A stretch of DNA of 64,000 nucleotides from Betaproteobacteria bacterium (GCA_037137465.1 JBAXKF010000002.1:12075-76074), one strand, 5' to 3'. Counted from the stretch's first letter, positions 949-24,469 are shown. Notes: a model not told the origin generated them from the sequence alone. Translations and numbers: made by a program.

Positions 949-2604
949 ATGGTTTACTCAACTGATTCAAAAGGAAACTTTGGGCAAATGATGGATTGTC
1001 CAATGCTTATCTCTTCTATTATAAGTTCTGCTGCAAGACATCATTCGCAATGTCAAATTGTTTCTAAGTCGGCGGAAGGGGATATCCATCGATATTCCAC
1101 CCCAGACCTTCAATTACGCGCTAAAAAATTAGCGCAATCTTTACAAAAACTAAATCTTAAACAAGGTTCTAGAGTAGCTACCTTAGCGTGGAATGGATAC
1201 CGACATTTAGAAATTTATTATGGTGTTTCAGGAAGTGGTCTGGTTTGTCATACGATTAATCCGAGACTATTTTCTGATCAAATAGCCTATATCATTCAAC
1301 ATGCGCAAGACGAGGTTGTATTTTTTGATATCAGTTTTTTGTCGTTAATTGAAGGGCTAGCGCCTTTATGTCCATCTGTTAAGTACTGGGTTTGTTTAAT
1401 CAATCCAAATCAGCAACCGCAGAGTTCACAAAAGCTTTTTAATTATGAAGAATTGATTGCTGCTGAAAATGGGCACTATGAATGGCCATTGCTTGATGAA
1501 AGAAGTGCCTCAAGTCTATGTTATACCTCAGGCACAACAGGCAATCCGAAGGGGGCTCTTTATAGCCACCGCTCTACAGTAATGCACTCGTATGCGACTG
1601 CATTGCCAGATTCATTATGTTTATCGGCAATGGATATTATTATGCCCGTAGTCCCCATGTTTCATGTGAATGCGTGGGGACTCCCATATTCTGCTTTAGT
1701 CGTTGGCGCTCAATTAGTTTTTCCTGGATCTAAATTAGATGGGCAATCCTTGTATGAGCTTATCGAGTCTGAGAAAGTCACCTTGTCTGCTGGGGTTCCT
1801 ACAGTATGGGCTGGTGTTTTACAACATATGAAAACACATGACTTACGATTCTCCAACTTTAAGCGGGTCCTCATTGGTGGCTCAGCATGTCCACCAGCAA
1901 TGATGCAGACATTCGCACAATATGGTGTTGAAGTAATTCATGCATGGGGTATGACCGAATTATCTCCTATCGGAACAGTTGCTCGATTACGCGCAACTGA
2001 TGTCCATAAAACGCCTGTTGAACAAGAAAAAATCTTACAAAAACAAGGCCGAGTAATTTTTGGGGTTGATATGAAGATTGTCGATGATCAACATCAGGAG
2101 TTACCTCATGATGGGGTAGCATTTGGTGATCTCTATGTCAGGGGACCATGGGTAATTAACCAATACTTCAAGACCTTGGATAGTGCTTTAGTGGACGATT
2201 GGTTTCCTACTGGTGATGTCGCCAATATAGATGCTCAGGGTAATATGCAAATTACCGACCGTAGTAAAGATGTCATTAAATCAGGTGGTGAGTGGATTTC
2301 TTCAATCGATATTGAAAATATTGCCTCAGGCCATCCAGAAGTCATGATGGCAGCCTGTATTGCTATTACCCACCCAAAATGGGATGAACGTCCTTTATTA
2401 GTGATAGAAAAAAAGCCTAATCATCAATTATCAGATCAGGAATTAAAAGACCAACTGTTAAAGTACTTTGAGGGCAAGATTGCCAAATGGTGGACACCAG
2501 ATGATGTTGTTTTCGTAGAAAAAATTCCACTTACGGCAACTGGTAAAATGCAAAAGCTCAAACTGAGAGAACAATTTAAAGAGTATCAACTCCCGACTAT
2601 ATGA
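949..2604 (+). CDS. Medium/long-chain fatty-acid--CoA ligase (AlkK/DmdB-like ANL family)
   Basis: AMP-binding [51 protein letters not shown]. Confidence 0.92.
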
Positions 2605-3017
2605 CACAAAATTTAACGGCAATACCCTTAGACGTACCATTTCTGCAGCTCCTAGGCGTGCAATTTGTCAAAATGTCTGACGGCATTGGAGAAATAGAAT
2701 TAGTCATTGAGAAAAAACATACGAATTCATGGTCAGTCGCTCATGGTGGAGTTTTGTTGACGCTTGTAGATGCTGCAATGGCTATTGCTGCAAGATCTGC
2801 TGATGCTAATGACCGAAGTGTGGTGACAATTGAGTTGAAGAATAGCTTTATGCAAGCCGCTCAGGGGCAGGTTAAAGTAATCGGGAAAGTGGTCCATCAA
2901 TCAACAACAATGGCCTTTTGTGAAGCCAGGGTATTTGATGAGCATGAGAAGTTATGCTGTTTAGCAACGGGTACTTTTAAATACTTTAAAAATCTCCCTG
3001 CACGTCCTCAAAAATAA
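2601..3017 (+). CDS. PaaI-family hot-dog thioesterase
   Basis: N...AHGGVLLTLVDAAM motif; ATGA overlap with the ligase. Confidence 0.88.
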   Translation: MTQNLTAIPLDVPFLQLLGVQFVKMSDGIGEIELVIEKKHTNSWSVAHGGVLLTLVDAAMAIAARSADANDRSVVTIELKNSFMQAAQGQVKVIGKVVHQSTTMAFCEARVFDEHEKLCCLATGTFKYFKNLPARPQK

Positions 3018-3025
3018 GTGAATTA

Positions 3026-3877
3026 CTAACGATCGATCTGCTCAGAGCGCTGTAATTGACCTTCAACGGAAGTGCTTTCATATTTATCTGATTGATCAAA
3101 ACGTCTTTCAATCATCTGAAAACTACCGTCTTTGCGGATGCGTAGTAATGTACTAGAGCGAGTGCCGTAATGCTCAGTTTTAATAAAAATAGGGGAGAGT
3201 GCCCTTTCCCAATCTTGATTCACACCGGTGGTGGGTAATTCAGAGTCAGGAAATGCCGAAGGATTATTGAGGAATTTAAAGTAATGCTCTGGATGGTTAA
3301 ATTTTCCTTGATCCATCGCAATTGCTTGAGCAAACTGCGCAACACCTTGGCGAACTTTTGGCCATGGAGTATCTAACATTGCATTGGATAAACCATAAAT
3401 ACCCGGATCAATTGTGACAGGGTGAACAACTTTCCGTTGTCGTATCTTATCCCCCATTAACATACGATTACTAGTCCAAGATAATTGTGGATTTTCAGGC
3501 TTGCTTAAATCAGCTGTTAATAAATTAAAACCGTTGTATTGCATAAAAGATTTTTGTTGTGCTTGAATAAACTCATCGATGGACAGTTTTTGAGATAGAA
3601 ACTTAGCAGTTAATTCACCCCGAGTTCTCAGATCAGGATTTTTTTCACTAGGCGCGCGGATATTTGTAATAGCTGAAAATTTACCATCCAAGGAGAGGCC
3701 TAAGGCAGTTCCGCGCATGCCAAGAACATCGGCATTATCTCTTGAGCCTAAAATGGTTTGATGATCTGTCCACCAATCGAGGGCTTGTGTGGGTCTTTCA
3801 TAGAACTCATCTCGATTAGCCGCCACAACGAGAGAGTAATCAGGATGAGAGTTCCAGGAGAAAAGTATCAAACACAT
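3026..3877 (-). CDS. NRDE/TANGO2 family protein
   Basis: MCLILF...ANRDEFYERPT N-terminus; YGLSNA.LDTPWPKV; YGTRSST. Confidence 0.92.
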   Translation of the reverse strand: MCLILFSWNSHPDYSLVVAANRDEFYERPTQALDWWTDHQTILGSRDNADVLGMRGTALGLSLDGKFSAITNIRAPSEKNPDLRTRGELTAKFLSQKLSIDEFIQAQQKSFMQYNGFNLLTADLSKPENPQLSWTSNRMLMGDKIRQRKVVHPVTIDPGIYGLSNAMLDTPWPKVRQGVAQFAQAIAMDQGKFNHPEHYFKFLNNPSAFPDSELPTTGVNQDWERALSPIFIKTEHYGTRSSTLLRIRKDGSFQMIERRFDQSDKYESTSVEGQLQRSEQIDR

Positions 3878-11861: not shown

Positions 11862-12306
11862 CAAACACATCCGCCCAACAGTTGGGAGTTTCGAATAGTC
11901 GCAGTTGTTTTAGACGAATGCGTCCTTGGTATTGTTTTAAAAGGACTGGGGCTAAGATATCAAATGCAATTTTGGCTAAATTTTCCGCCGTTGGAATACC
12001 TTCGATGACTGTGGTTTTATGCCCAGGGATGGTATTTAAAAATTCAATCAGCGGAAGGTCACGATTCGATACAAAAAACGAGTGGTCCCATGGATCAATA
12101 ATGAATTCTTGGATGATTGCTTTGATATGAGCAAAGTCCATCATCATGCCTTCATCAGTAGCGCCAGTAGTATGTATCAGCTGACCTTGAAGAGTCACTT
12201 CGATTTGATAACGATGGCCATGTAAGTGGCGGCATTGCCCGAGGTGATTGGGTATGCGATGTCCTGCATCAAATTCCATTCGTCTAGTGATTTGAAAGAG
12301 TTGCAT
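11848..12306 (-). CDS. queD: 6-carboxy-5,6,7,8-tetrahydropterin synthase
   Basis: FDAGHRI...C..LHGHRY, WDH, PTAENLA, ETP. Confidence 0.92.
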   Translation of the reverse strand: MQLFQITRRMEFDAGHRIPNHLGQCRHLHGHRYQIEVTLQGQLIHTTGATDEGMMMDFAHIKAIIQEFIIDPWDHSFFVSNRDLPLIEFLNTIPGHKTTVIEGIPTAENLAKIAFDILAPVLLKQYQGRIRLKQLRLFETPNCWADVFDESD

Positions 12307-12314
12307 GTGTTTCT

Positions 12315-12980
12315 TTACGGTAAGTTTAAAAATTTATGCTGTTGAGTACTTAAACGCCATAGGGGGCGCTCTTTACATAACTCAATAGCGAGTTGGAGGT
12401 GCTTTGCTTGAGAAGGACTATCCATTGCTTGTAAAAAGAAATGTCGAAAATTCATTTGTTCAAAACGCTTTAATCGTTGCAAAATCAATTCTTTTTGAGG
12501 GATAAGCTCCTTTTGGGGAACTATGTACTTAATTTCATCAGCCTGAAGAACAAGCAAATCACTACCATCTTTCGGACTTACGCAAACCCAGTCAATCCCA
12601 TTTGGGGGAATAATCGTGCCATTAGTTTCTATAGCGATTTGAAATTGTTCTTCTTTCAGTATTTTTATCAGCTCTGGATCTAGTTGCAGTAGAGGCTCTC
12701 CCCCCGTAAAAACAACATAACGGTAGTTGTGAGAACGATTCATGGTGGTCCATTCTTTGACAATCGACGCCGCTAGCTCTTGTGCAGTACTAAATTTTCC
12801 ACCACCAGGGCCGTTGGTTCCGACAAAATCAGTATCGCAAAATTGACAAATAGCGTTAGCACGATCTTCCTCTCGTCCAGACCATAGATTGCATCCTGCA
12901 AATCGGCAAAAAACCGCGACTCGGCCAGCGTGTGCACCCTCACCCTGCAAGGTGCTAAAAATTTCTTTTACTGTATACAT
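12315..12980 (-). CDS. queE: 7-carboxy-7-deazaguanine synthase (radical SAM)
   Basis: EIFSTLQGEG, CX14CX2C cluster motif (CNLWSGREEDRANAICQFC), TGGEP, ETNG. Confidence 0.95.
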   Translation of the reverse strand: MYTVKEIFSTLQGEGAHAGRVAVFCRFAGCNLWSGREEDRANAICQFCDTDFVGTNGPGGGKFSTAQELAASIVKEWTTMNRSHNYRYVVFTGGEPLLQLDPELIKILKEEQFQIAIETNGTIIPPNGIDWVCVSPKDGSDLLVLQADEIKYIVPQKELIPQKELILQRLKRFEQMNFRHFFLQAMDSPSQAKHLQLAIELCKERPLWRLSTQQHKFLNLP

Positions 12981-13067
12981 AGGTATCTATTTTAAACTTG
13001 AACAAGGGTAATTATTTTTAATTGATAATAGGTAAAGACTTAGTCTAAAAAATACATTTGATAAGCG

Positions 13068-13856
13068 ATGACAAAAATAGAATCCACAGATCACATAAGA
13101 GCTAATTGCAAAGACGGAATTCTGGAATTAGAAATCTATCGACGTGACAAGAAAAATGCTTTAACAGAGGCTATGTATCAATCCTTAACTCAAAATATTC
13201 AATTTGCGTATATCAATCAAGACATTAGGGTTATTTATCTGCATGGTCAAGAGGACCTTTTTACCTCTGGAAATGATCTGAATGAGTTCGTTAAATTCAA
13301 TCCAAGCGAAGAATCTTGCGCCTTACAGTTTTTAAAAACAATCGCCAACTGTCCATTACCGATTGTGGTCGCTGTTGGGGGTGATGCTATTGGAATTGGT
13401 ACTACCCTACTTTTACACTGCGATCTAGTCATCGCCTCAACTCAGTCTAGGTTTCAATTACCATTTGTCAATTTAGGCTTATGTCCTGAAGGGGCTTCTA
13501 GCTACTTATTACCTATTCAGGCTGGCCATAAATTAAGTAATGAACTGTTATTGCTGGGGAATTCTTTTGATGCCTCAGTTGCGCATCAAGCAGGTTTGAT
13601 CAATTCGTCTTATCCAAAAGAGCAAATTTTGCAAAGAGGGCTCGAGATGTGTAAGCAATTGGTAAGTAAGCCCTATGATTCAATAATGTCCACAAAACGA
13701 TTACTCAAGCAACATCACCAAAAGAGCACCAATGATGCTCTGGAAACCGAGTTTTCAGAGTTTCTTCATTTGTTGCAACAACCAGCCGCAAAAGAAATCC
13801 TCCGTGCTTTTTTAGAAAAAAAAGCTCCCAATATACCCATTTCTAAACTCCATTAA
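13068..13856 (+). CDS. Crotonase-family protein, likely enoyl-CoA delta-isomerase type
   Basis: FTSGNDL oxyanion loop; GIGTTLLLHCD and LPFVNLGLCPEG (lacks the two hydratase Glu, has the isomerase-type Glu). Confidence 0.8.
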   Translation: MTKIESTDHIRANCKDGILELEIYRRDKKNALTEAMYQSLTQNIQFAYINQDIRVIYLHGQEDLFTSGNDLNEFVKFNPSEESCALQFLKTIANCPLPIVVAVGGDAIGIGTTLLLHCDLVIASTQSRFQLPFVNLGLCPEGASSYLLPIQAGHKLSNELLLLGNSFDASVAHQAGLINSSYPKEQILQRGLEMCKQLVSKPYDSIMSTKRLLKQHHQKSTNDALETEFSEFLHLLQQPAAKEILRAFLEKKAPNIPISKLH

Positions 13857-13861
13857 TTGCT

Positions 13862-14317
13862 ATGTCCGAATTAACTATTCCAGAAGGCTTTTATCAACAC
13901 CCTATGTCTGAAAAAGCTGAGAAATTTCTCAGTCTACTAGGACCTTGGTACTTTAAAAACGCAGTCCATGAGAATGGGCGTGCAGAAAGAGTCTTTGGTA
14001 TTCATATTGAAGACAAACATACCAATATTTGGGGATCTGCGCATGGAGGAATGTTAATTTCGATGGCAGACTCTGCGCTTGGATATAACCTGTCTAGGGC
14101 AACGGACCCTCCTCAGAAATTAGTTACTGTTCATTTAAATGCTGACTTTATAGCCAGCCCAAAACCTGGTGATTGGGTTCATACAGAAATGAATATTCAT
14201 AAAATTGGTGCCAAAATGAGTTTTGCCGATTGTTATTTAAAAGTTGGTGAAAAGTTAATCCTCAGAACGAGTGGTGTTTTTGCTGTATTACAACGTCTTC
14301 AAAAAGTGAGTGCATAG
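13862..14317 (+). CDS. PaaI-family hot-dog thioesterase
   Basis: N.WGSAHGGMLISMADSALG. Confidence 0.85.
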   Translation: MSELTIPEGFYQHPMSEKAEKFLSLLGPWYFKNAVHENGRAERVFGIHIEDKHTNIWGSAHGGMLISMADSALGYNLSRATDPPQKLVTVHLNADFIASPKPGDWVHTEMNIHKIGAKMSFADCYLKVGEKLILRTSGVFAVLQRLQKVSA

Positions 14318-14795
14318 ATTAATGTCTACAGAAAAAGATATAAAGAAATTTTATTATTGGGAAGACTTTGTCAAAGGTCAAACGATTGAATGTGGCTCAC
14401 TGACGATTTCCGAATCCCAAATTATTGACTTTGCCAGTCAATATGATCCCCAACGTTTTCATGTGAATAAAGAAGCTGCCGAAGTAACGCAATTTAAAGG
14501 CCTTATTGCAAGCGGTTGGCAAACCGCTGCATTCATGATGCGTATGGTATGTGATAGCTTTATGGTTAGTTCTTCATCAGTTGGTTCCCCTGGAATTGAA
14601 AGCCTAAAATGGATAAAACCAATACGCCCTGGAGATACTTTAAAAACGATGGTTGAAATCTTAGAAACCAGACCTCTCAACAGTAAGCCTCATCTAGGAA
14701 TGATCTTATCTCGGTGGAGCTGCTATAACCAACATAATGAATTAACAACAACGATCGAAGCATGGAACATGTTTGAAAAACGGCCAAGTAATTAA
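14310..14795 (+). CDS. MaoC-family (R)-specific enoyl-CoA hydratase/dehydratase
   Basis: FASQYDPQRFH, IASGWQT, P.RPGD. Confidence 0.85.
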   Translation: MHRLMSTEKDIKKFYYWEDFVKGQTIECGSLTISESQIIDFASQYDPQRFHVNKEAAEVTQFKGLIASGWQTAAFMMRMVCDSFMVSSSSVGSPGIESLKWIKPIRPGDTLKTMVEILETRPLNSKPHLGMILSRWSCYNQHNELTTTIEAWNMFEKRPSN

Positions 14796-14801
14796 ATAAT
14801 C

Positions 14802-15533
14802 ATGCCAAAACTACATGTTCTAACCAATAAATCTGAGTTAAAAAAGGAGCAAATCAGCGATAAAGTCGTCATTGTTCTTGATATCCTCATCGCAACGAGT
14901 TCTATTGTGACTGCTTTAGCGAATGGTTGTAAAGAGGTCGTACCCGTCAGAAATTATGATGAGGCCTTGCTTTTACAACAACAAGAGCAATATCAAGGAT
15001 ATAAATTCTCTGGGGAACTCAATGCTGATACTTTGTCGGGTTTTATTCAACCTACACCTATTGCGCTTCTTGAAGCTGGCATGCAAGATTCGCGTTTAGT
15101 GTATTGCACAACTAATGGCACAGTTGCACTAACTGAGTGTAAAAATACCCAAAACACTTATGTGGGATCATTGTTGAATGCTCAGGCTGTAACCAATCAC
15201 CTTTTTAAAAATTATGCCAAGAGTAATATTTTGATTGTCTGCTCAGGCTCAAGTGATCAATTTAACATTGAGGATTTTTATGGCGCCGGATATTTTGTGG
15301 AGTGTTTATTAAATACTTTTCCTCATAACGCTTTACAACTATCTGATAGTGCAATGGCAGCGAAAATTTTTCATGACAGCGGTTCTTCAATTGATTTATT
15401 AAACCTTTCAAGAGTAGGCCAGCTTTTAAATAATAGAGACTGGCAACGTGAAGTAGTTTTTGCAGCACAAAAGGATATCTACCCTATAGTTCCTTATTTA
15501 ACATCCCAGGGAAACGTTGAGCTAATTACATGA
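14802..15533 (+). CDS. ComB-like (2-phosphosulfolactate phosphatase family) protein
   Basis: IVLDILIATSSIVTALANG, SGE, TTNGTVAL, GSLLNA, IVCSG...ED..GAG. Confidence 0.8.
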   Translation: MPKLHVLTNKSELKKEQISDKVVIVLDILIATSSIVTALANGCKEVVPVRNYDEALLLQQQEQYQGYKFSGELNADTLSGFIQPTPIALLEAGMQDSRLVYCTTNGTVALTECKNTQNTYVGSLLNAQAVTNHLFKNYAKSNILIVCSGSSDQFNIEDFYGAGYFVECLLNTFPHNALQLSDSAMAAKIFHDSGSSIDLLNLSRVGQLLNNRDWQREVVFAAQKDIYPIVPYLTSQGNVELIT

Positions 15534-16381
15534 GTAATCAAAATCTTCTATTAGATAATCGCACCGTTGTTATTACTGGTGCTGCTAGTGGCATTGGTTT
15601 AGAACTGGTTAAACAAGCAAACCTTCGGCAGATGAATATTGTATTGTCAGATATTAATTTCGATATGTTGCAAGAAGTGAAAGCGCAATTGAAACTTGTC
15701 GATAGTAAAACATTACTTGTTAAAACAGATGTGAGTCAAGAAGCTGATATTGCAAATCTTTGTAAATTAAGTTATGAGCGCTTTGATTCCGTTCAGTTGC
15801 TTTGTAATAATGCGGGCGTATGTTTAAACCGCTTAAGTTGGGAACATACTGCGGCAGACTGGGAGTGGTTAATTGGCGTCAATCTACATAGTGTTGCCCA
15901 CGCAATGCGGCATTTTGTACCTCACATGCTCAAACAATCCGAGAGATCTCATATTGTAAATACGGCATCTGTTGCTGGACTTATAAGCACTCCAGGTATG
16001 GCCGCCTATAGTGCATCAAAACATGGTGTTGTTACATTATCTGAAACACTGTATTACGAATTACAAGAATTAAAATCGAACATAGGGGTTTCTGTCTTAT
16101 GCCCTGCCTGGGTACCAACTCAAATACATCAGTCGCAGATAAATAGGCCTGAACGTTTTGGTCAACACCAAGATGCAAAGGATGAGCTCTCTATTGAATA
16201 TGAAAAGAATATGGCTCAAGCAGTTCAATCAGGCCGATTAACTGCTACCCAAATTGCTGAAGAAGTTTTTAAGGCTGTAGTTAAGAACCAGTTTTACATT
16301 ATTCCTCATCAACGAATTAATCCTTTGATTGAACGACGTATGCAATCTATTCTTTCGCTAACAAATCCCGAGGCTCTTTAA
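15530..16381 (+). CDS. Short-chain dehydrogenase/reductase
   Basis: TGAASGIG, NNAG, NTAS, YSASK. Confidence 0.92.
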   Translation: MSNQNLLLDNRTVVITGAASGIGLELVKQANLRQMNIVLSDINFDMLQEVKAQLKLVDSKTLLVKTDVSQEADIANLCKLSYERFDSVQLLCNNAGVCLNRLSWEHTAADWEWLIGVNLHSVAHAMRHFVPHMLKQSERSHIVNTASVAGLISTPGMAAYSASKHGVVTLSETLYYELQELKSNIGVSVLCPAWVPTQIHQSQINRPERFGQHQDAKDELSIEYEKNMAQAVQSGRLTATQIAEEVFKAVVKNQFYIIPHQRINPLIERRMQSILSLTNPEAL

Positions 16382-17377
16382 ATGACGATGAAAGCTCTAT
16401 TATGTGAATCCTTTGGACCCATAGCACAACTAAAAATTAAAGAACTTCAAGATCCAGCTCCCTTGGCTAATCAAGTTCTTGTTGAAGTAGCTTATGCTGC
16501 AGTTAATTTTCCAGATGCGCTCATGGTACAAGGTTTGTATCAAACTAAGCCTCCTTTTCCTTTTTCGCCCGGGCATGAAATATCCGGGATTATTAGTGCT
16601 CTTGGCAGTGATGTGAAAAATTTTAAAATTGGTGATCGCATATTCTGCGCACCAAGTTATGGTGGCTTTGCAGAGAAAATTGCAGTTGATGTCGACCGTG
16701 TAATACCTCTTCCAGACTCAATCCCTCTAGCTATGGGAGCAGCAATAACTTTAACGTATGGTACTTCTTTGCATGCTTTAAATAATGTGGCCAAACTGCA
16801 AGCAGATGAAACAATCCTTGTTTTGGGTGCATCAGGCGGCGTTGGTGCAGCCGCTATTGAATTAGCTAATGTCATCGGCGCGAAGGTAATTGCTTGCGCA
16901 TCATCGGATACGAAATTAGACTTTTGCAAAAGTCTTGGGGCTCATGAGTGCATTAATTATGAAAAAGAAGATTTAAAAACACGTATCAAAGAAATAACGC
17001 AGCAACGGGGTTGTGACGTTGTTTATGATCCCGTTGGTGGTCATTATTCGGAGATTGCACTACGCAGTTTAGCTTGGCGAGGTCGTCATTTAGTGGTTGG
17101 TTTTGCCTCTGGTGCGATACCGAAAATACCCCTGAATCTAGCATTGCTATCAGAAAGAAATATCATGGGAGTCTTCTGGGGTGACTGGATACGAAGGAAC
17201 CCAGATTTACATTTGCAAAATATGGACTTTATTATGGAGCTGATTCTACAAAACAAAATTAAGCCAATAATTACGAAAACGTTTGCTTTTCAAGATGCTG
17301 TAGAGGCAATAGAACACTTGGCATCACGACAAGCCATGGGTAAGGTAGTCGTTGCAATTAACCCCGACATATTGTGA
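16382..17377 (+). CDS. NADPH:quinone oxidoreductase-family (Zn-free MDR) reductase
   Basis: AVNFPD, PFSPGHE, GASGGVG, GFASG, GKVVV. Confidence 0.9.
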   Translation: MTMKALLCESFGPIAQLKIKELQDPAPLANQVLVEVAYAAVNFPDALMVQGLYQTKPPFPFSPGHEISGIISALGSDVKNFKIGDRIFCAPSYGGFAEKIAVDVDRVIPLPDSIPLAMGAAITLTYGTSLHALNNVAKLQADETILVLGASGGVGAAAIELANVIGAKVIACASSDTKLDFCKSLGAHECINYEKEDLKTRIKEITQQRGCDVVYDPVGGHYSEIALRSLAWRGRHLVVGFASGAIPKIPLNLALLSERNIMGVFWGDWIRRNPDLHLQNMDFIMELILQNKIKPIITKTFAFQDAVEAIEHLASRQAMGKVVVAINPDIL

Positions 17378-17405
17378 AGTAATGAATGATTAAAAGGAAA
17401 AACAT

Positions 17406-19496
17406 ATGGGACTCACTCAGATTGAGTTAAGTAATAGAGTTGCATTAATTACGATGAATCATCCTCCAGTGAACGGTTTGGGATATGCATTGCGAGTTTC
17501 TATTATTGAACGAATTCAAGAGGCATTACAAAACGATAGTGTTGGTGCAATTATCATTACAGGATCAGAAAAGGCTTTTTCAGGTGGCGCTGATATTAAA
17601 GAATTTGGCACTGTAAAGGCAATCACAGAGCCTCATTTGCAATCTGTCATTCGAGTTATTGAAAACTCTCCAAAACCTATTATTGCTGCTATACAAGGTG
17701 TTTGTATGGGCGGCGGATTTGAGTTGGCCTTAGGTTGTCATTACCGAGTAGCGCTCATGAGTGCATCTGTTGCGCTTCCTGAGATTAAATTAGGACTCAT
17801 TCCAGGAGCTGGCGGAACTCAGCGTTTACCTCGCGTCATTGGTGTTGAAAAAGCACTTAATTTTATTTTGTCAGGTGACCCTCTTCCTGCAATTACTTTC
17901 AAAGACTCGCCTTTGTTTGACGCTTTATACGAATCTAATTTGATTCATTGTGCAATTGAATTTGCTGAGCAATTGATTGATGAGAAAAAGCCACTCAAAA
18001 AAATACGTGACATACCTATAGACTATCCAAATTTTGAAAGTTTTTTGCAGTTCTCGCGTAACACAGTGAAAACAGTTGCTGCGCCTTATCCTGCAGCTCT
18101 TAAGGTGATTGATGCCATATCAGCAGCAATCACACTACCCTTTGAAAAAGGGATTATAAAAGAACGAGAATTTTTTCTTGATCTGATGAATACCTCGGTT
18201 TCTAGGGCAATGCGATATGCCTTTTTCGCCCAGAGAGGCACCGCTAAAATTGCTGATATTCCGTCTGATACCCCCCTTCGTGAGATAAAAAAAGTAGGTA
18301 TTGTTGGAGCTGGAACAATGGGTGGTGGTATCGCAATGAATTTTGTGAATATTGGTATCCCCGTCATTCTTCTTGAGACTTCCCAAGATAAACTTGATAA
18401 AGGTTTATTGACAATTCAATCCAATTATCAAAATACGGTTAAAAAAGGAAAACTAACCGTAGAAAAAATGCAAACCAGATTAAATCTTATTCAATCAAGC
18501 TTGAATTACAGTGATTTACAAGACGTGGATTTAGTCATTGAAGCGGTTTTTGAGGAGATTGGAGTTAAAGAAATTGTTTTCAAACAACTGGACATTGTCA
18601 TTAAACCTGGTGCAATATTAGCTACTAATACATCGACACTCGATGTCAACACAATTGCAAACTTTACCAAACGCCCGCAAGATGTCATTGGTATGCATTT
18701 TTTTAGTCCCGCCAATGTCATGCAACTTCTCGAAGTGGTTCGTGGTGAAAAAACTTCAAATGATGTCATTGCTACGGTCATGAAACTGGCTCAAAAAATC
18801 AAGAAAACACCTGTAGTATGTCGTGTTTGTGATGGTTTTATTGGCAACCGAATGGTTGAGCAATACTTACGAATGGCAGGATTTTTACTTGAACAAGGGG
18901 CAACACCTTGGCAAATTGATAAAGCCTTAGAGGATTTTGGCATGATTATGGGACCTTTTCGGATGAGTGATTTGGCCGGAAATGATATTGGTTGGGCTAT
19001 CCGTAAACGTCGATCTATTGAGCAACCTCTTTTGAAGTACTCTAAATTTGCTGATGTGATTTGTGAAGCTGGAAGATTCGGTCAAAAAACAGGTAAAGGT
19101 TGGTATGCCTATGAAAAAGGCAATCGTAAACCTCTACCAGATCCCGAGCTTGAGTCTATGCTGATTCAATTTAGAGCAGATCATGGATTTAAACCAAGAA
19201 AAATTTCTAATGATGAAATTGTGCAATTTTGTATCTTCGCTTTGATTAATGAAGGGGTACGAATACTTGAAGAAGGAATCGCTCAACGTGCTTCAGACAT
19301 AGATATTGTCTACCTTACAGGCTACGGATTCCCCGTTTACCGTGGTGGTCCCCTTAAATATGCGGATGAAATCGGACTATTTCAAGTAATACAAGTTTGC
19401 AATAAATTTTATCAATCCACTAATGACGTTTTTTGGAAACCAGCTCAGTTATTACAAGACTGCTTAGCCCAAACCAAATCACTCACAGGCTCATAA
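17406..19496 (+). CDS. Bifunctional enoyl-CoA hydratase / 3-hydroxyacyl-CoA dehydrogenase (FadB/PimF-like)
   Basis: Crotonase domain (FSGGADI, GGGFE, LPEIKLG); [10 protein letters not shown] Rossmann motif; [13 protein letters not shown]; GFIGNRM. Confidence 0.93.
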
Positions 19497-19516
19497 AATA
19501 TTCTGAGGAAGATATC

Positions 19517-20695
19517 ATGACAGATGCAGTAATAGTATCGACAGCGCGTACCGCATTAGCTAAGTCATGGCGAGGTAGCTTTAACATGACTCATGGCGCC
19601 GTTTTGGGTGGTCATGTAGTCAATGAGGCAGTTCGCCGCGCCAAAGTTGACCCAAATGAAGTTGAAGATGTCATTATGGGCTGCGCCAATCCTGAAGGTG
19701 CTACAGGACTTAATATCGCAAGACAAATTGCTCTTAAGGCGGGGCTTCCGGTATCTGTTGGCGGTGTCACGGTCAACCGCTTTTGTTCCTCGGGATTACA
19801 AGCTATCGCAATGGCTGCGCAACGTGTCATTGTCGATCAGGTCCCAGTGATGGTTGCTGGCGGCGTCGAGTCAATATCGTGTGTTCAATTAGAAATGAAC
19901 CAACACATGTTACTTGAACCTTCTTTGCAAAAATCTAAGCCTGAACTGTATTGGTCGATGCTCCAAACGGCTGAACAAGTTGCCAAGCGATATAGCATTA
20001 GCAAGGATCTTCAAGATGAATACGGCGTAAGAAGTCAAATTCGCGCAGCAAAAGCGCAAGAGCAAGGTCTTTTTCGGGATGAGATCGCGCCGATTAAAGT
20101 GACGATGGGTGTTGCTAATACAGATACAAAGATGTTATCGACACAAGAAGTCACAGTGAGTGAAGATGAAGGCATACGTCCAGACACTAATTTTGAAGGT
20201 GTTCAAAAAATCCGTTCTGCCCTGCCTGGTGGTGTGATCACCGCTGGTAACGCGAGTCAATTTTCTGATGGGGCTAGCGCTGCAGTAGTGATGAATGCCA
20301 AACTCGCAGAGAAAAAAGGTTTAGAACCTTTAGGGATCTTTAGAGGGTTTGCTGTTGCGGGATGTGAGCCTGATGAAATGGGGATTGGTCCAGTCTTTGC
20401 TATTCCTCGACTACTTGAAAGATCAGGCTTAAAAATGTCAGATATTGGTCTTTGGGAACTTAATGAAGCATTTGCTGTTCAAGTTCTTTATTGTCGAGAT
20501 AAATTAGGCATCCCCGATGAAATTTTAAATGTGAATGGTGGTGCAATTGCTGTTGGCCATCCCTATGGAGTTTCGGGTGCTAGGATGGTTGGCCATGCAT
20601 TAATAGAAGGTAAGCGCAGAAATGTTAAGTATGTTGTTGTTACGATGTGTGTTGGTGGTGGGCAAGGTGCCGCTGGTTTATTTGAGGTTTGTTAG
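19517..20695 (+). CDS. Acetyl-CoA C-acyltransferase (thiolase)
   Basis: Start at ATG 19517 after a gagga SD; NRFCSSG, NEAFA, GHPYG, CVGGGQG. Confidence 0.95.
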
Positions 20696-20704
20696 GGTTT
20701 AATT

Positions 20705-21100
20705 ATGAAAAAAGAATACTTTGGTGTACATGTACCATTCATCGCTCATTTAGGGGTTGAGGCTAAAATCATTGCTGAAGGAGAAGTTGAGTCGGTGTTA
20801 GAGCTACAACCTCACCACTGTAATCCGCTTGGATACTCTCATGGTGGTGTCATGATGACTCTTCTTGATTTCACAATGGCGATGTCAGCAAAAACAAAGG
20901 CTAAACATACTGGAGTGGGTTTAACAATTGATATGTCGATTGTGTTTATGAAAGGCGGTCAAGATAAGTTGATCGTCAGGGGTAAAGTATTAAAAAGTGG
21001 AAGATCTATTCATTTTTGTGAAGCGTCTGCGTTTGATGTGACTGGTGAGATGGTTGCTAAGGCAATGGGTACTTTTAAGTTAGTGGATATAAAGTCATGA
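20705..21100 (+). CDS. PaaI-family hot-dog thioesterase
   Basis: N.LGYSHGGVMMTLLDFTM. Confidence 0.87.
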   Translation: MKKEYFGVHVPFIAHLGVEAKIIAEGEVESVLELQPHHCNPLGYSHGGVMMTLLDFTMAMSAKTKAKHTGVGLTIDMSIVFMKGGQDKLIVRGKVLKSGRSIHFCEASAFDVTGEMVAKAMGTFKLVDIKS

Positions 21101-22155
21101 CGCAATTTTCAGGAACAAAAGAAGTTCCTCTAGATCATGTATTTTCAACAGAAAAATTTTTAGATTGGGCAAAAGATAAAGTTCCCAACATTAATCCCCA
21201 GTTGCCTCTCGAGCTTCATCAATTTAAAGGTGGGCAATCAAACCCAACTTTTTTAGTCAAACATAATGAACAGTCTTATGTTTTAAGAAGAAAACCTGCC
21301 GGTATATTACTTCCTAGTGCCCACGCAATTGACCGCGAATATAAAGTAATCAGCGCATTGTCCAAGCATCATTTCCCGGTTGCAAAACCGCTGGGCTATT
21401 GTTCTGATATCGATGTTATTGGTTCAGAATTTTATTTAATGAGTTTTCTCCAGGGTAGAGTCTTTTGGGATCCCCGTTTACCAGAGTTATCGGATACTGA
21501 CCGCACGCAAGTATTTGATGCCATGAATGCCGTAATTGCCCAAATGCACGCTCTTGACCCTGTAGCTATAGGTTTAGAGGATTATGGTCGTTTTGGAGGT
21601 TATGTTCAAAGGCAATTAGATCGTTGGACGAAGCAGTACAGAGCCTCTGAAACTGAAAAAATACCTGCGATGGATAATTTAATTGATTGGCTACCTCAAC
21701 ACATTCCTCCCTATGATGCAACAAGCTTAGTGCATGGTGATTTTAGGCTTGATAATCTCATTTTCGATCCTGTAGAACCTAAAATTTTAGGTGTGCTTGA
21801 TTGGGAGTTATCCACTCTCGGTAATCCTTTATCTGATTTTGCTTATCATGCAATGGTATGGCGATTATCTCCTGGTCTTTTTAGGGGGCTTGGTGCTGTC
21901 GATATTCAAAGCTTGAAAATCCCCGATGAAAAAACCTACTTAGAGTCCTACCTAAAGAGAACTGGACAAGTACTAGAAAGCCAAAGGGATTGGGATTTTT
22001 ACATTATTTTTAATATGTTTCGGTTATCGGCCATCCTTCAAGGGATTATGGCAAGAGCATTACAAGGTAATGCCTCTAGTGATTCTGCCCTTGAGGCAGG
22101 GAAAAAAGCGAAACCTCTAGCGGAGTTAGCTTGGGAACAAGTTTTAAAAATATAG
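21097..22155 (+). CDS. APH/choline-kinase-family phosphotransferase (LvaA / ACAD10-11 kinase-like)
   Basis: GGQSNPT, VLRRKP.G.LLPSAHAIDREY, HGDFRLDN, LDWELSTLG. Confidence 0.9.
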   Translation: MTQFSGTKEVPLDHVFSTEKFLDWAKDKVPNINPQLPLELHQFKGGQSNPTFLVKHNEQSYVLRRKPAGILLPSAHAIDREYKVISALSKHHFPVAKPLGYCSDIDVIGSEFYLMSFLQGRVFWDPRLPELSDTDRTQVFDAMNAVIAQMHALDPVAIGLEDYGRFGGYVQRQLDRWTKQYRASETEKIPAMDNLIDWLPQHIPPYDATSLVHGDFRLDNLIFDPVEPKILGVLDWELSTLGNPLSDFAYHAMVWRLSPGLFRGLGAVDIQSLKIPDEKTYLESYLKRTGQVLESQRDWDFYIIFNMFRLSAILQGIMARALQGNASSDSALEAGKKAKPLAELAWEQVLKI

Positions 22156-22605
22156 GCGGATTAACATTTCAGCCACACACGCCGGCTTTTCGACCCCCTC
22201 TACTTCAAGGCTTATTTTCCACTCCACTTGAATGCCACCTTCAATTTCGGCGATCTCTTGGATAAAAAAACGACCTCGAATACGACTGCCTGAATTTACT
22301 GCATGAGGAAATCGTACCTTATTTAAGCCGTAATTAATTGCGCTTTTTGCTAATGGAAACTCCATACAAGACTCTAAAAAGTATGGTATCAAAGACAGCG
22401 TTAAAAAACCATGAGCAATTGTCGTTCCGTAGGGAGACTCTTTTTTTGCGCGTATTGAATCAATATGAATCCATTGATGATCATTCGTGGAATCTGCAAA
22501 GGCTTGAATCATGGATTGCGATATGTCAAGCCAAGGACTGATTGCAAGCTCAGAACCCACTTTTGAATTTAGATCTTCTAGGGATTGAAATATGACTTTT
22601 GACAT
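22144..22605 (-). CDS. MaoC-family dehydratase
   Basis: FADSTNDHQWIH, TIAHGFLTLSL, NYGLNKVRFP. Confidence 0.9.
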   Translation of the reverse strand: MSKVIFQSLEDLNSKVGSELAISPWLDISQSMIQAFADSTNDHQWIHIDSIRAKKESPYGTTIAHGFLTLSLIPYFLESCMEFPLAKSAINYGLNKVRFPHAVNSGSRIRGRFFIQEIAEIEGGIQVEWKISLEVEGVEKPACVAEMLIRLYF

Positions 22606-23436
22606 TTACTGACCACCTTGTAATAACTCAATCTCTTCATCCGTAAAGCCGGCTTGTTTTCGTGCGGCAACGTTAAAGGGGCCCCTAAGAGTTGGGGCAT
22701 TGTATTGCAGTGATAATTCATGAAAGGCTTTCAGAGGATCAAGTTCACGTGTCTTACACATGAAATTGAACCAACGGTTACCAATTTCAACATGACCAAT
22801 TTCATCATGTAAGATCCTATCTAAAATATCGACCATTTGCTGATCTTTAACCTGTAAAAATCGAGCCCGCATTGCAGGGACAGCATCTAAGCCTCTTGCC
22901 TCCATTGTTCTTGGAACTAATGCCATGCGAGCAAGAATATCTCCTTTTGTTTTTTCAACCATTTCCCATAAACTATCGTGGGCTGGGAAATCACCGTAGT
23001 CATATTGAAGGGTGTTTAAGTAATTTTTGAGTAATAAAAAATGCGTAGCCTCTTCATCTGCAACTTTTATCCAATCAAGATAATAGTCTTTAGGCATATC
23101 AGCAAATCTCCATACAGCATCAAGAGCTAAGTTAATAGCATTAAATTCAATGTGCGCCAAAGCATGGATAGCAACCGCCCTTCCCTCTATGTTGTGCATG
23201 GATCGTTTTTTGACCGCTAATGGGTTAACCAATACAGGTTGATTAGGACGACCGGGGATTAAATATTCATCCGATACAATAATCTCTGAGGGGTTAATTA
23301 GAGACTCTTCTTGAAGATTGCAGGCCGCTATACGCTTGACAGCGTCATATTTAGAGATAGGATCGGTTACAGTAAGTGCTTCATAAGCCTTTAAACGAAG
23401 ACTTTGTGCATGGTTATTGGGCGTATTTATCATCAA
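22606..23436 (-). CDS. Ferritin-like di-iron protein (DUF455)
   Basis: HALAHIEFNAINLALD, EEATHF, EARGLD, DEIGHV. Confidence 0.88.
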   Translation of the reverse strand: MMINTPNNHAQSLRLKAYEALTVTDPISKYDAVKRIAACNLQEESLINPSEIIVSDEYLIPGRPNQPVLVNPLAVKKRSMHNIEGRAVAIHALAHIEFNAINLALDAVWRFADMPKDYYLDWIKVADEEATHFLLLKNYLNTLQYDYGDFPAHDSLWEMVEKTKGDILARMALVPRTMEARGLDAVPAMRARFLQVKDQQMVDILDRILHDEIGHVEIGNRWFNFMCKTRELDPLKAFHELSLQYNAPTLRGPFNVAARKQAGFTDEEIELLQGGQ

Positions 23437-23509
23437 GTCTTCTAGATTACTGTATATTCTAAAAATGGTAAATTATATGAGTTCTCAAATACAAATTTAA
23501 AGGTGACAA

Positions 23510-24469
23510 ATGAAATTCTTCACACGTCTAATTATCTCTCTGTTGCTGCTGCCTACTTTGTTATATGCACAACAGTATCCTAATAAAACAGTAAAAATTA
23601 TTGTTCCCTTTGCCGCCGGCGGGCCTGCTGATAATTATGCGCGATTTATGGCTCAACGCCTTCAAGATGAACTAAAACAGTCTTTTATCGTTGAGGATAA
23701 ACCTGGTGCTGGATCAATTATTGGGACTGATTTTGCGGCAAAGTCACCTGCCGATGGTTATACCCTCCTTATGATGTCTAATACCCAAACCGTTAATGAG
23801 TCATTGGTTCAAAATAAACCATTTCAATTAATGAGAGACTTCGTGCCGGTTGCACCGATTAATTACTCTGATCTAGTACTGGTTACTAATCCTAAGGTTC
23901 CAGCTAAAACTTTAGCTGAATTAATTGCGCTCGTAAAAGCATCCCCAGGCAAATATAATTACGCGTCTTCTGGCAATGGCACTCCGTATCACATGGCTGG
24001 TGAACTTTTTAAATCAATGGCAGGCTTGGATATTACGCATATTCCATATAAGGGTAGTTCTGGGGCCAGGACTGATGTTATCGGCGGACAAGTCGATATG
24101 ATGTTTGACGCGGTTACTACAATGAATGAGTTTGTAAAAGAAAATAAAGTACAAGCATTAGCTACTACCGGTAAAAATAGATCAGCAATCATGCCTCAAA
24201 TACCAACAGTGAATGAAGCCGGTGTCCCTCGGTATGAAACCACAATTTGGTTAGGTATTATGGCTCCTAAAGGAACCCCTGCCGAGGCGGTAACTATTTT
24301 GAATAATGCTATTCGAAAAATTATCTCCCAAGGTGAGGTAAAAGATACTTGGGCAAAACAAGGTGCGCTCCCGTTAATCATGTCCCCTAGCGAATTTAAT
24401 AAATATTTAGATGCCGATATTGCCAAATGGAGTGCAATTGTGAAGTCGGCTGGAATTAAGCCAGATTAA
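23510..24469 (+). CDS. Bug/TctC tripartite tricarboxylate-transporter substrate-binding protein
   Basis: Signal peptide; YP.K.V..IVPFAAGGPAD; KPGAGSIIG; Y.SSGNG...H; HIPYKG. Confidence 0.93.
   Translation: MKFFTRLIISLLLLPTLLYAQQYPNKTVKIIVPFAAGGPADNYARFMAQRLQDELKQSFIVEDKPGAGSIIGTDFAAKSPADGYTLLMMSNTQTVNESLVQNKPFQLMRDFVPVAPINYSDLVLVTNPKVPAKTLAELIALVKASPGKYNYASSGNGTPYHMAGELFKSMAGLDITHIPYKGSSGARTDVIGGQVDMMFDAVTTMNEFVKENKVQALATTGKNRSAIMPQIPTVNEAGVPRYETTIWLGIMAPKGTPAEAVTILNNAIRKIISQGEVKDTWAKQGALPLIMSPSEFNKYLDADIAKWSAIVKSAGIKPD

Follow-up and report, generated by a model that had tools for sequence, protein, structure and literature searches.

We analysed a 64-kb window of a Betaproteobacteria bacterium genome (GCA_037137465.1, JBAXKF010000002.1:12075-76074; "the window" denotes this whole stretch of 64,000 nucleotides). 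Between positions 13068 and 22155, ten open reading frames (ORFs) on the + strand form a row of acyl-CoA enzymes that also includes a ComB-like phosphatase and a kinase related to the kinase domains of the acyl-CoA dehydrogenases (ACADs) ACAD10 and ACAD11. The ORFs are co-oriented and tightly packed, i.e., their spacing is in order 5, -8, 6, -4, 0, 28, 20, 9 and -4 bp, which confirms a first-pass annotation that had listed ten co-oriented genes with overlaps and gaps of at most 28 bp. Here, the 20 bp in front of the thiolase gene assume its homolog-supported start ATG 19517, where the match of the thiolase model NF005494 begins (residue 29 of the longer ORF); the listed start TTG 19433 would give a 64 bp overlap with the preceding gene. 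Domains were called with Pfam and NCBIfam profiles, and family membership was judged by the NCBIfam equivalog cut-offs. Where labels are needed, L, G and C numbers denote compared loci, genomes (G000 is the window's own) and contigs, respectively.

The row starts with a crotonase-family enzyme of the enoyl-CoA hydratase (ECH) type (13068-13856, 262 aa; PF00378, ECH_1, E 1.2e-43). It scores below all NCBIfam equivalog cut-offs, has 6lvo, 5ve2 and 7bor as its best PDB relatives and is probably an auxiliary enoyl-CoA isomerase or hydratase. It is followed by HBT1, a hot-dog thioesterase-type protein of the 4HBT/THEM2-like kind (13862-14317, 151 aa; PF03061 E 1e-10; PDB 2hbo E 3e-13, plus THEM2), by MaoC1, which resembles MaoC-type (R)-specific enoyl-CoA hydratases (14310-14795, 161 aa; PF01575 E 4e-17), and by the ComB-like phosphatase (14802-15533, 243 aa; PF04029, 2-ph_phosp, E 6.6e-56). 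Next in the row are two oxidoreductases. The first is a classical short-chain dehydrogenase/reductase (SDR; 15530-16381, 283 aa; PF00106, adh_short, E 2.7e-43), which reaches 302 bits with PRK06194 for a cut-off of 308 and may be considered a candidate 4-oxoacyl/4-hydroxyacyl-CoA oxidoreductase. A DECR-type dienoyl-CoA reductase is not supported for this gene, since no such family is among its top NCBIfam matches. The second is a medium-chain dehydrogenase/reductase (MDR) of the PIG3/quinone-oxidoreductase type (16382-17377, 331 aa; ADH_N and ADH_zinc_N; TIGR02824 235.6 bits, cut-off 296.8), a candidate enoyl or enone reductase.

The remaining four genes encode a FadB-like enoyl-CoA hydratase/3-hydroxyacyl-CoA dehydrogenase (17406-19496, 696 aa; ECH_1, 3HCDH_N and 3HCDH), a 3-ketoacyl-CoA thiolase (19517-20695, 392 aa; NF005494 738.8 bits, cut-off 615), the second hot-dog protein HBT2 (20705-21100, 131 aa; PF03061 and PF14539, i.e., thioesterase-like 4HBT/DUF4442; PDB 3dkz E 4e-21, plus THEM2), whose end overlaps the start of the next gene by 4 bp, and finally the kinase (21097-22155, 352 aa), which has the aminoglycoside phosphotransferase (APH) fold (PF01636 E 2.5e-55). 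The crotonase, MaoC, SDR, MDR, hydratase/3-hydroxyacyl-CoA dehydrogenase, thiolase and APH assignments of the first-pass annotation thus stand, while its two PaaI thioesterases do not. That is, HBT1 and HBT2 obtain 29.1 and 24.9 bits from the PaaI model TIGR02286, far below its cut-off of 118.9, and we therefore treat both as generic THEM2/4HBT-like hot-dog proteins.

The APH gene had been proposed to be an ACAD10/11- or LvaA-type kinase, and the sequence comparisons agree. Its best PDB matches are 3dxp from Cupriavidus (E 5e-125), a protein that carries the name 'putative acyl-CoA dehydrogenase', and the ACAD11 kinase domain 8v3v (E 2e-79), while unrelated APHs match at E 5e-8 or weaker. Both catalytic motifs are intact, namely HGDFRLDN at residues 213-220 (HxDxxxxN) and the metal-binding DWE at 235-237. 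The family is large and strongly conserved, with about 58% identity across Beta- and Gammaproteobacteria, and the window's kinase is 57-58% identical to kinases that adjoin an ACAD11-type ACAD (L007, L008). These comparisons identify it as orthologous to the 4-hydroxyacyl-CoA kinases of the ACAD10/11 and Burkholderia type. For the Burkholderia pseudomallei ortholog, ATP-dependent phosphorylation of 4-hydroxyacyl-CoA was demonstrated, and Paquay et al. report that the kinase and ACAD orthologs of this species can stand in for the respective ACAD10 domains, on a route from 4-hydroxyhexanoyl-CoA via 4-phosphohexanoyl-CoA to the 2-enoyl-CoA (PMC11342911). Further APH-family genes are found in the window's genome at C20:24367-25047 and C3:20583-21236 (PF01636 E 1e-33 and 1e-30), and a paralogous APH kinase of about 50% identity is present in 22/121 Polynucleobacter genomes that have neither an ACAD11-type ACAD nor ComB (e.g., G183:C1:10736-11668).

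A profile search found no ACAD within the 64-kb window, which agrees with the first-pass annotation. The latter had taken this absence as a sign of a different route, a conclusion that does not hold at the level of the genome, as the genome search for an ACAD11-like ACAD proposed there shows. The only ACAD match on the window's contig (C2:112142-113356) lies 36 kb past the window end, i.e., 78 kb downstream of the kinase, where it stands alone, flanked by yaaA on the - strand and rarA on the + strand. Its best match is human ACAD11, namely the ACAD domain (PDB 2wbi, E 9e-150), the next ACAD type following at 1.6e-37. Its C-terminal motif LADGPDE holds ADG, that is, Asp in place of the catalytic Glu; other ACADs carry the catalytic YEG at this position. 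At L007 (Steroidobacteraceae) and L008 (Rhodocyclaceae), the kinase ortholog is directly followed by an ACAD, and a tblastn search of the window's own genome with these two ACADs gave one clear ortholog with 65-66% identity, the next ACAD being 27-29% identical.

The two genes are also inherited together. Among 121 Polynucleobacter genomes, nine hold a kinase ortholog (at least 59% identity), and an ACAD11-type ACAD is encoded by 8/9 of these compared to 0/112 of the others (Fisher p 1e-11), although it is never linked to the kinase, i.e., the two are on different contigs or separated by more than 80 kb. Within a set of 301 Burkholderiales genomes, 79/81 kinase holders carry the ACAD11-type ACAD. 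Since an ACAD ortholog is present and co-inherited and since orthologs of both enzymes were shown to be active, the known pathway with unlinked genes is the simplest reading. The lack of an ACAD in the cluster does therefore not imply new chemistry, since the partner sits elsewhere in the genome.

Besides, the cluster is the genome's only FadBA operon, which also speaks against reading the missing ACAD as a sign of a different route. The genome comprises 2.44 Mb in 113 contigs and is 98.7% complete. The gene at 17406-19496 is its sole full-length FadB, as other matches cover only the 3HCDH part at 34% identity, and the closest other thiolase is 36% identical to that of the window. The pair shows the domain order expected for FadBA, that is, an alpha subunit with ECH and 3HCDH parts followed by the 3-ketoacyl-CoA thiolase. 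By its scores, the former is FadB-like and not an equivalog of the E. coli protein (485.7 bits for an E. coli-type equivalog cut-off of 870; E 1e-145 and 1e-138 with the FadB and FadJ models, both below their equivalog cut-offs). Because the only FadBA pair is located here, we consider the cluster to be the main beta-oxidation operon extended by accessory genes. fadBA operons often come without an ACAD of their own, and nine ACADs are dispersed elsewhere in this genome according to the profile search.

The same gene row is found again in related genomes (L001, L003, L013-L018), so the arrangement is not due to chance. In Polynucleobacter relatives, the interval from queE to a downstream gene pair, MaoC2 and DUF455, holds varying gene combinations. 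In the window, queE, queD, a tadA-like deaminase gene and an LD-carboxypeptidase gene are found upstream of and divergent from the cluster, and downstream the second MaoC-type hydratase-like gene MaoC2 (22144-22605, - strand; PF01575 E 1.7e-19) converges with the kinase gene such that their stop regions overlap by 12 bp. It is followed by a DUF455 gene (22606-23436, - strand; PF04305 E 2.9e-92). All ten genes are present at this site in L003 and L013, whereas SDR and MDR are missing in L001, L015 and L016 and FadB and thiolase in L014 and L017. L011 holds in addition an ABC transporter and both MDR types, L005 shows the order FadB-thiolase-SDR-HBT2-MDR-kinase-ligase without ComB, and a minimal cluster HBT1-ComB-HBT2-kinase is found in P. 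rarus (L019, 9537-13515), in P. kasalickyi (L021) and at L020. The invariant core of the site is HBT2 plus kinase, and HBT2 was present wherever a kinase cluster was examined, Rhodocyclaceae (L008) and Myxococcales (L012, L060) included. SDR and MDR travel as a pair next to ComB (L003, L011, L014, L017, L022, L052, L068), and MaoC2 accompanies ComB or the kinase in distant lineages as well, being located behind one of them in the same orientation in L011, L029, L052, L064, L065, L083, L084 and L094-L097. DUF455 was rejected as a member of the system: its matches are confined to Polynucleobacter loci (L001-L006, L013-L021), such that its adjacency to MaoC2 probably reflects synteny within the genus.

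The phosphatase had been called ComB-like, which is correct with regard to the family and not with regard to the equivalog. Its PF04029 match spans profile positions 5-224 of 226, and the motifs D27, GE72, TTNGT103-107 and ED157-158 are shared with PDB 1vr0, 2yyv and 2z0j. Still, the protein scores below every NCBIfam ComB equivalog cut-off, with 103.9 bits for TIGR00298 (cut-off 175.05) and 140.1 bits for the best model NF002055 (cut-off 345). The phosphosulfolactate synthase ComA (PF02679), which would provide the substrate of ComB, has no match in the window's genome, whereas control genomes do match. A coenzyme M or sulfolactate role was rejected on the basis of both observations. The substrates hydrolysed by ComB-family enzymes are small anionic acids that carry phosphate on a secondary alcohol. 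Given the common fold family and motifs, the window's protein is presumably, like the 2-phosphosulfolactate phosphatase ComB itself (EC 3.1.3.71; PDB 1vr0, 2yyv), a Mg-dependent phosphomonoesterase acting on the secondary-alcohol phosphate of a small anionic acid. In contrast to ComB, such proteins are always embedded in acyl-CoA clusters here. In the literature, searches on phosphosulfolactate phosphatase combined with acyl-CoA or beta-oxidation led only to metagenome or metabolome papers on other subjects, and no paper that connects PF04029 to acyl-CoA metabolism was found.

To relate the phosphatase to its neighbours, we counted the genes around 80 species-level ComB loci from GTDB. HBT1 is the commonest neighbour (60/80), followed by MaoC1 (50/80, directly adjacent in 49), ECH (43/80), AMP-ligase (41/80), ordinary ACADs (35/80) and the ACAD10/11-type kinase (18/80). 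Of these 18 kinases, ten fall into the 3dxp clade (Polynucleobacter, Pelistega and other Betaproteobacteria), while eight belong to a divergent clade from Myxococcales and Anaeromyxobacteraceae that is closest to PDB 9o56 (E 1e-97); the latter kinase is about 31% identical to that of the window and its ACAD11-type ACAD 38%. ComB adjoins the former clade in L013-L021, L070 and L091, and the latter together with an ACAD11-type ACAD in L012, L060, L062, L067, L071 (7250-11539), L086 and L092, where the Myxococcales-type order is ACAD11-type ACAD-kinase-HBT1-(MaoC1)-ComB-SDR-HBT2. For all 16 tested ComB genomes without a kinase at the locus, the kinase is encoded elsewhere, in three cases at a distance of 12-15 kb. 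Sulfuritalea shows three ACADs followed by ECH-4HBT-4HBT-ComB-MaoC-ligase. In several other Burkholderiales families, ComB is found 4-9 kb from an ACAD11-type ACAD; there, L094 (3657-13102; also L095-L097) holds the co-oriented row ACAD-ACAD-3HCDH-MaoC1-ComB-two ORFs-HpcH/CitE-type lyase-MaoC2-4HBT-ACAD11-type ACAD, in which the two ORFs encode 156 aa each and have no Pfam match, the final ACAD is 70% identical and the kinase is located elsewhere in the genome.

The association also holds across genomes. ComB is found in 1/151 genomes of the sampled family, namely the window's own, and in 6/121 Polynucleobacter genomes, all six of which hold the kinase with ComB inside the kinase cluster (kinase overall: 9/121). 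Among the 301 Burkholderiales genomes, 41 encode ComB; 39 of them hold the kinase compared to a background of 27% (Fisher p 7e-24), and 40 hold the ACAD11-type ACAD compared to 32% (Fisher p 5e-22), the exception being a genome of 79% completeness. When counted by genus, the kinase is present in 15/15 ComB genera against 38/142 (p 2e-10), and by family in 10/10 against 18 of at least 61 (p about 5e-7 or less). The joint occurrence of ComB and kinase expected by the first-pass annotation is thus supported by physical adjacency and by co-occurrence across genomes. Because nearly all genomes with ComB also hold kinase and ACAD and because ComB adjoins two kinase clades in two phyla, we consider a functional dependence to be indicated, and the protein belongs to a subfamily that is tied to acyl-CoA clusters and to the kinase/ACAD11-type pair.

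Taken together, we lean modestly towards a known pathway of the ACAD10/11/Lva type that is merged with the main FadBA operon and has the ComB-like phosphatase as an accessory. The ten genes would then be one predicted operon, which serves a Polynucleobacter-type lake bacterium as its main FadBA operon for beta-oxidation and in which auxiliary enzymes widen the substrate range to fatty acids that ordinary beta-oxidation does not cover. Going by homology, the kinase would convert 4-hydroxyacyl-CoA into 4-phosphoacyl-CoA, the distant ACAD11-type flavoenzyme with its Asp base would eliminate the phosphate to yield 2-enoyl-CoA, and FadB and thiolase would finish the beta-oxidation cycle. SDR and MDR may convert 4-oxo or unsaturated precursors into 4-hydroxyacyl-CoA or one enantiomer of the latter into the other, while double bonds at the wrong position and (R)-3-hydroxy intermediates may be dealt with by the crotonase and MaoC proteins. 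The ComB-like protein would be an active Mg-dependent phosphatase recruited to the pathway. Together with HBT1, it could hydrolyse 4-phosphoacyl-CoA or the free 4-phospho acid when elimination lags, which would free trapped CoA and phosphate and give back the 4-hydroxy acid.

Several observations are behind this assignment of the phosphatase. Cells that make 4-phosphoacyl-CoA contain free 4-phospho-hydroxyhexanoate (PMC11342911), and therefore thioester hydrolysis of the intermediate does happen. We propose the hydrolysis of 4-phosphates since 4-phosphoacyl-CoA ties up CoA and since non-homologous phosphatases accompany the kinase elsewhere, as in Pseudomonas citronellolis, where a histidine phosphatase adjoins lvaA (PMC6692424). 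The ComB-like protein is thus probably an undescribed accessory of the 4-hydroxyacyl-CoA pathway and might constitute a third non-homologous phosphatase family attached to the kinase, after the haloacid dehalogenase (HAD) domain of ACAD10 and the histidine phosphatase of P. citronellolis. The first-pass annotation had proposed a repair or recycling role and pointed to the HAD domain of ACAD10. As an argument, this analogy is weaker than was assumed, because the phosphatase activity of the HAD domain towards 4-phosphoacyl-CoA was found to be negligible (PMC11342911) and an ether lipid has meanwhile been named as its substrate (bioRxiv 10.1101/2025.09.10.675409). The proposed role as such is plausible.

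The relation to described systems can be stated more precisely. With regard to mammalian ACAD10/ACAD11 and the stand-alone orthologs of B. pseudomallei (PMC12440821, PMC11342911; PDB 8v3u, 8v3v, 2wbi, 3dxp), both enzymes have orthologs here that retain the kinase motifs and, in the ACAD, Asp as the catalytic base, and the 2-enoyl-CoA product would feed the FadB and thiolase of the same operon. The two are separate proteins encoded 78 kb apart, whereas they are fused in mammals and adjacent in most Betaproteobacteria (L007, L008, L091), and the companion phosphatase has a PF04029 ComB fold instead of the HAD domain of ACAD10. With the lvaABCDE operon of Pseudomonas putida (PMC6692424), the cluster shares the logic of a reductase that provides 4-hydroxyacyl-CoA, a kinase and phosphate removal by an ACAD-family enzyme. 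In P. putida, the kinase (LvaA), its small partner (LvaB), the ACAD (LvaC), an SDR (LvaD) and a ligase (LvaE) share one cluster. A small protein is always found beside the kinase, namely LvaB there and HBT2 in the same position here. Both the P. citronellolis lva variant and the window have a phosphatase gene in the cluster, albeit from different fold families. Unlike lva, the operon contains neither a CoA ligase nor a regulator (an AMP-binding gene is located at 949-2604), its ACAD is unlinked, its SDR is probably of a different subfamily, and it is merged with general FadBA genes.

A further reference is the canonical betaproteobacterial cluster FadB-thiolase-SDR-DUF4442-MDR(ADH_N_2)-kinase-ACAD (e.g., L008, Rhodocyclaceae). 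FadB, thiolase, HBT2 and kinase of the window are orthologous to its members at 43-80% identity and in the same order, while the canonical SDR, the ADH_N_2-type MDR and the adjacent ACAD are missing and the block ECH-HBT1-MaoC1-ComB-SDR-MDR is present upstream instead. Orthologs of the canonical SDR and MDR were not found in the window's genome either; the window's SDR and MDR, which are of other subfamilies, may fill their roles.

A number of results weigh against this interpretation. For 62/80 ComB loci, there is no kinase inside 10 kb, and the tightest neighbours of ComB are MaoC and HBT1 rather than the kinase, such that its substrate could differ. The co-occurrence statistics ignore phylogeny as well as a shared lipid-degrader lifestyle. 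The roles of SDR, MDR, ECH and MaoC are suggested by family membership, with all of them below the equivalog cut-offs. P. rarus and P. kasalickyi (G266, G267/G209) possess at the same site an intact kinase, ComB, HBT1, HBT2 and the convergent MaoC2-DUF455 pair, while no ACAD11-type ACAD was found in their genomes, the best ACAD being generic and 34% identical. A hidden LvaC-like ACAD was rejected for P. rarus, as the best candidate is of a generic short-chain type and located beside a haloacid dehalogenase. Without an ACAD11-type ACAD, kinase, thioesterase and phosphatase alone would run a futile cycle; in these two species, the pathway is either in decay or relies on a different enzyme for phosphate removal. 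Finally, prokaryotic kinase homologs phosphorylate 1-O-alkylglycerols in vitro (bioRxiv 10.1101/2025.09.10.675409).

The first of these results would be explained if ComB belonged to a separate ECH-HBT1-MaoC1-ComB-SDR-MDR module for some other phosphorylated or unusual acyl substrate, which is simply fused to the FadBA-kinase operon in this window. The genome-level correlation of ComB and kinase would then reflect a common lipid- or organic-acid-degrading lifestyle. The neighbour counts fit this explanation, since HBT1, MaoC1, ECH, AMP-ligase and ordinary ACADs outnumber the kinase. So do the Sulfuritalea locus, where ComB is found amid ACADs, ECH, 4HBTs, MaoC and a ligase, the L094-L097 rows, where it occurs with 3HCDH, two unknown genes and an HpcH/CitE-type lyase, and the free variation of module content at the Polynucleobacter site. 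We nevertheless rate it as rather unlikely. The kinase/ACAD11-type pair is present in 39-40 of the 41 ComB genomes where 27-32% form the background, the kinase reaches all 15 ComB genera and all 10 ComB families, and ComB is the direct neighbour of kinases from two divergent clades in phyla that are far apart. In Polynucleobacter, the cluster is at its smallest reduced to HBT1-ComB-HBT2-kinase (L019-L021), the L094-L097 rows finish with an ACAD11-type ACAD, and no other kinase or source of phosphoesters is visible in the ComB clusters.

P. rarus and P. kasalickyi leave some room for another explanation along the lines of the first-pass annotation, i.e., an ACAD-independent phospho-acyl-CoA route, in which the phosphate, once attached, would be taken off or moved by hot-dog, crotonase or MaoC proteins and ComB would clear side products. 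For instance, elimination from a 4-phospho-2-enoyl-CoA would give a dienoyl-CoA to be reduced by MDR or SDR, and the reductases and the isomerase-like crotonase of the cluster would suit such an intermediate. No Polynucleobacter genome has an ACAD beside the kinase, and both species retain kinase, ComB, two hot-dog proteins and MaoC2 without an ACAD11-type ACAD. Still, the ACAD11-type gene is intact in the window's genome, it is kept by 8/9 kinase holders in the genus and 79/81 in the order, and gamma-phosphate elimination is known for no enzyme of the families in question. Since their clusters also lack FadB, thiolase, SDR and MDR, the two exceptional species may be losing the pathway. We thus think such a route improbable. 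The same low probability is assigned to its strongest form, in which kinase, ComB-like protein and hot-dog/MaoC proteins would be self-sufficient in ACAD-independent processing, with HBT1-ComB-HBT2-kinase-MaoC2 of P. rarus and P. kasalickyi as the barest version. If true, it would amount to new flavin-free chemistry to remove or relocate a 4-hydroxyl group.

That kinase and phosphatase act on lipid alcohols and not on CoA esters is very improbable. Myxococcales make ether lipids, and their kinases beside ComB are closest to PDB 9o56, which is presumably the Caldalkalibacillus thermarum kinase crystallised in the above preprint, although the PDB table names no organism. Furthermore, chimyl alcohol was phosphorylated by several prokaryotic homologs of the ACAD10 kinase domain after purification, some of which were more active with acetyl-CoA (bioRxiv 10.1101/2025.09.10.675409). 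However, every neighbour in every lineage is an acyl-CoA enzyme, and the ACAD with which the kinase co-occurs near-perfectly eliminates phosphate and plays no part in ether-lipid salvage. Ether lipids are, to our knowledge, not known in Polynucleobacter.

The interpretation as a 4-hydroxyacyl-CoA pathway merged with FadBA is of interest beyond this genome. The route of 4-hydroxy fatty acids into beta-oxidation was worked out only in 2024-2025; such acids include lipid-peroxidation products, opened gamma-lactones and reduced levulinate. The association of ComB with kinase and ACAD suggests that cells do need to hydrolyse 4-phospho intermediates or to keep them in check and bears on the questions of how a phosphorylated CoA intermediate is controlled and why phosphatase domains accompany the kinase. 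The ComB-like protein would be a simple stand-alone bacterial enzyme for testing the hydrolysis of 4-phospho intermediates, and the association may for the first time place many 'ComB' genes of bacteria without coenzyme M synthesis in a functional context. Furthermore, where an ACAD is missing from such a cluster, the whole genome should be checked before new chemistry is inferred.

Some minor observations concern the region around the cluster and the beginning of the window. A promoter and terminator scan of 12300-23600 gave counts not above those of shuffled sequences, and no internal terminator stood out. At the beginning of the window, the AMP-binding gene (949-2604, +) encodes an acyl-CoA synthetase of 551 aa that may be the activating ligase of the pathway. 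It overlaps by 4 bp with a paralog of HBT2 (138 aa, 35% identical to HBT2), the pair spanning 949-3017 (+), and a bacterial TANGO2-family gene adjoins the pair at 3026-3877 (-).

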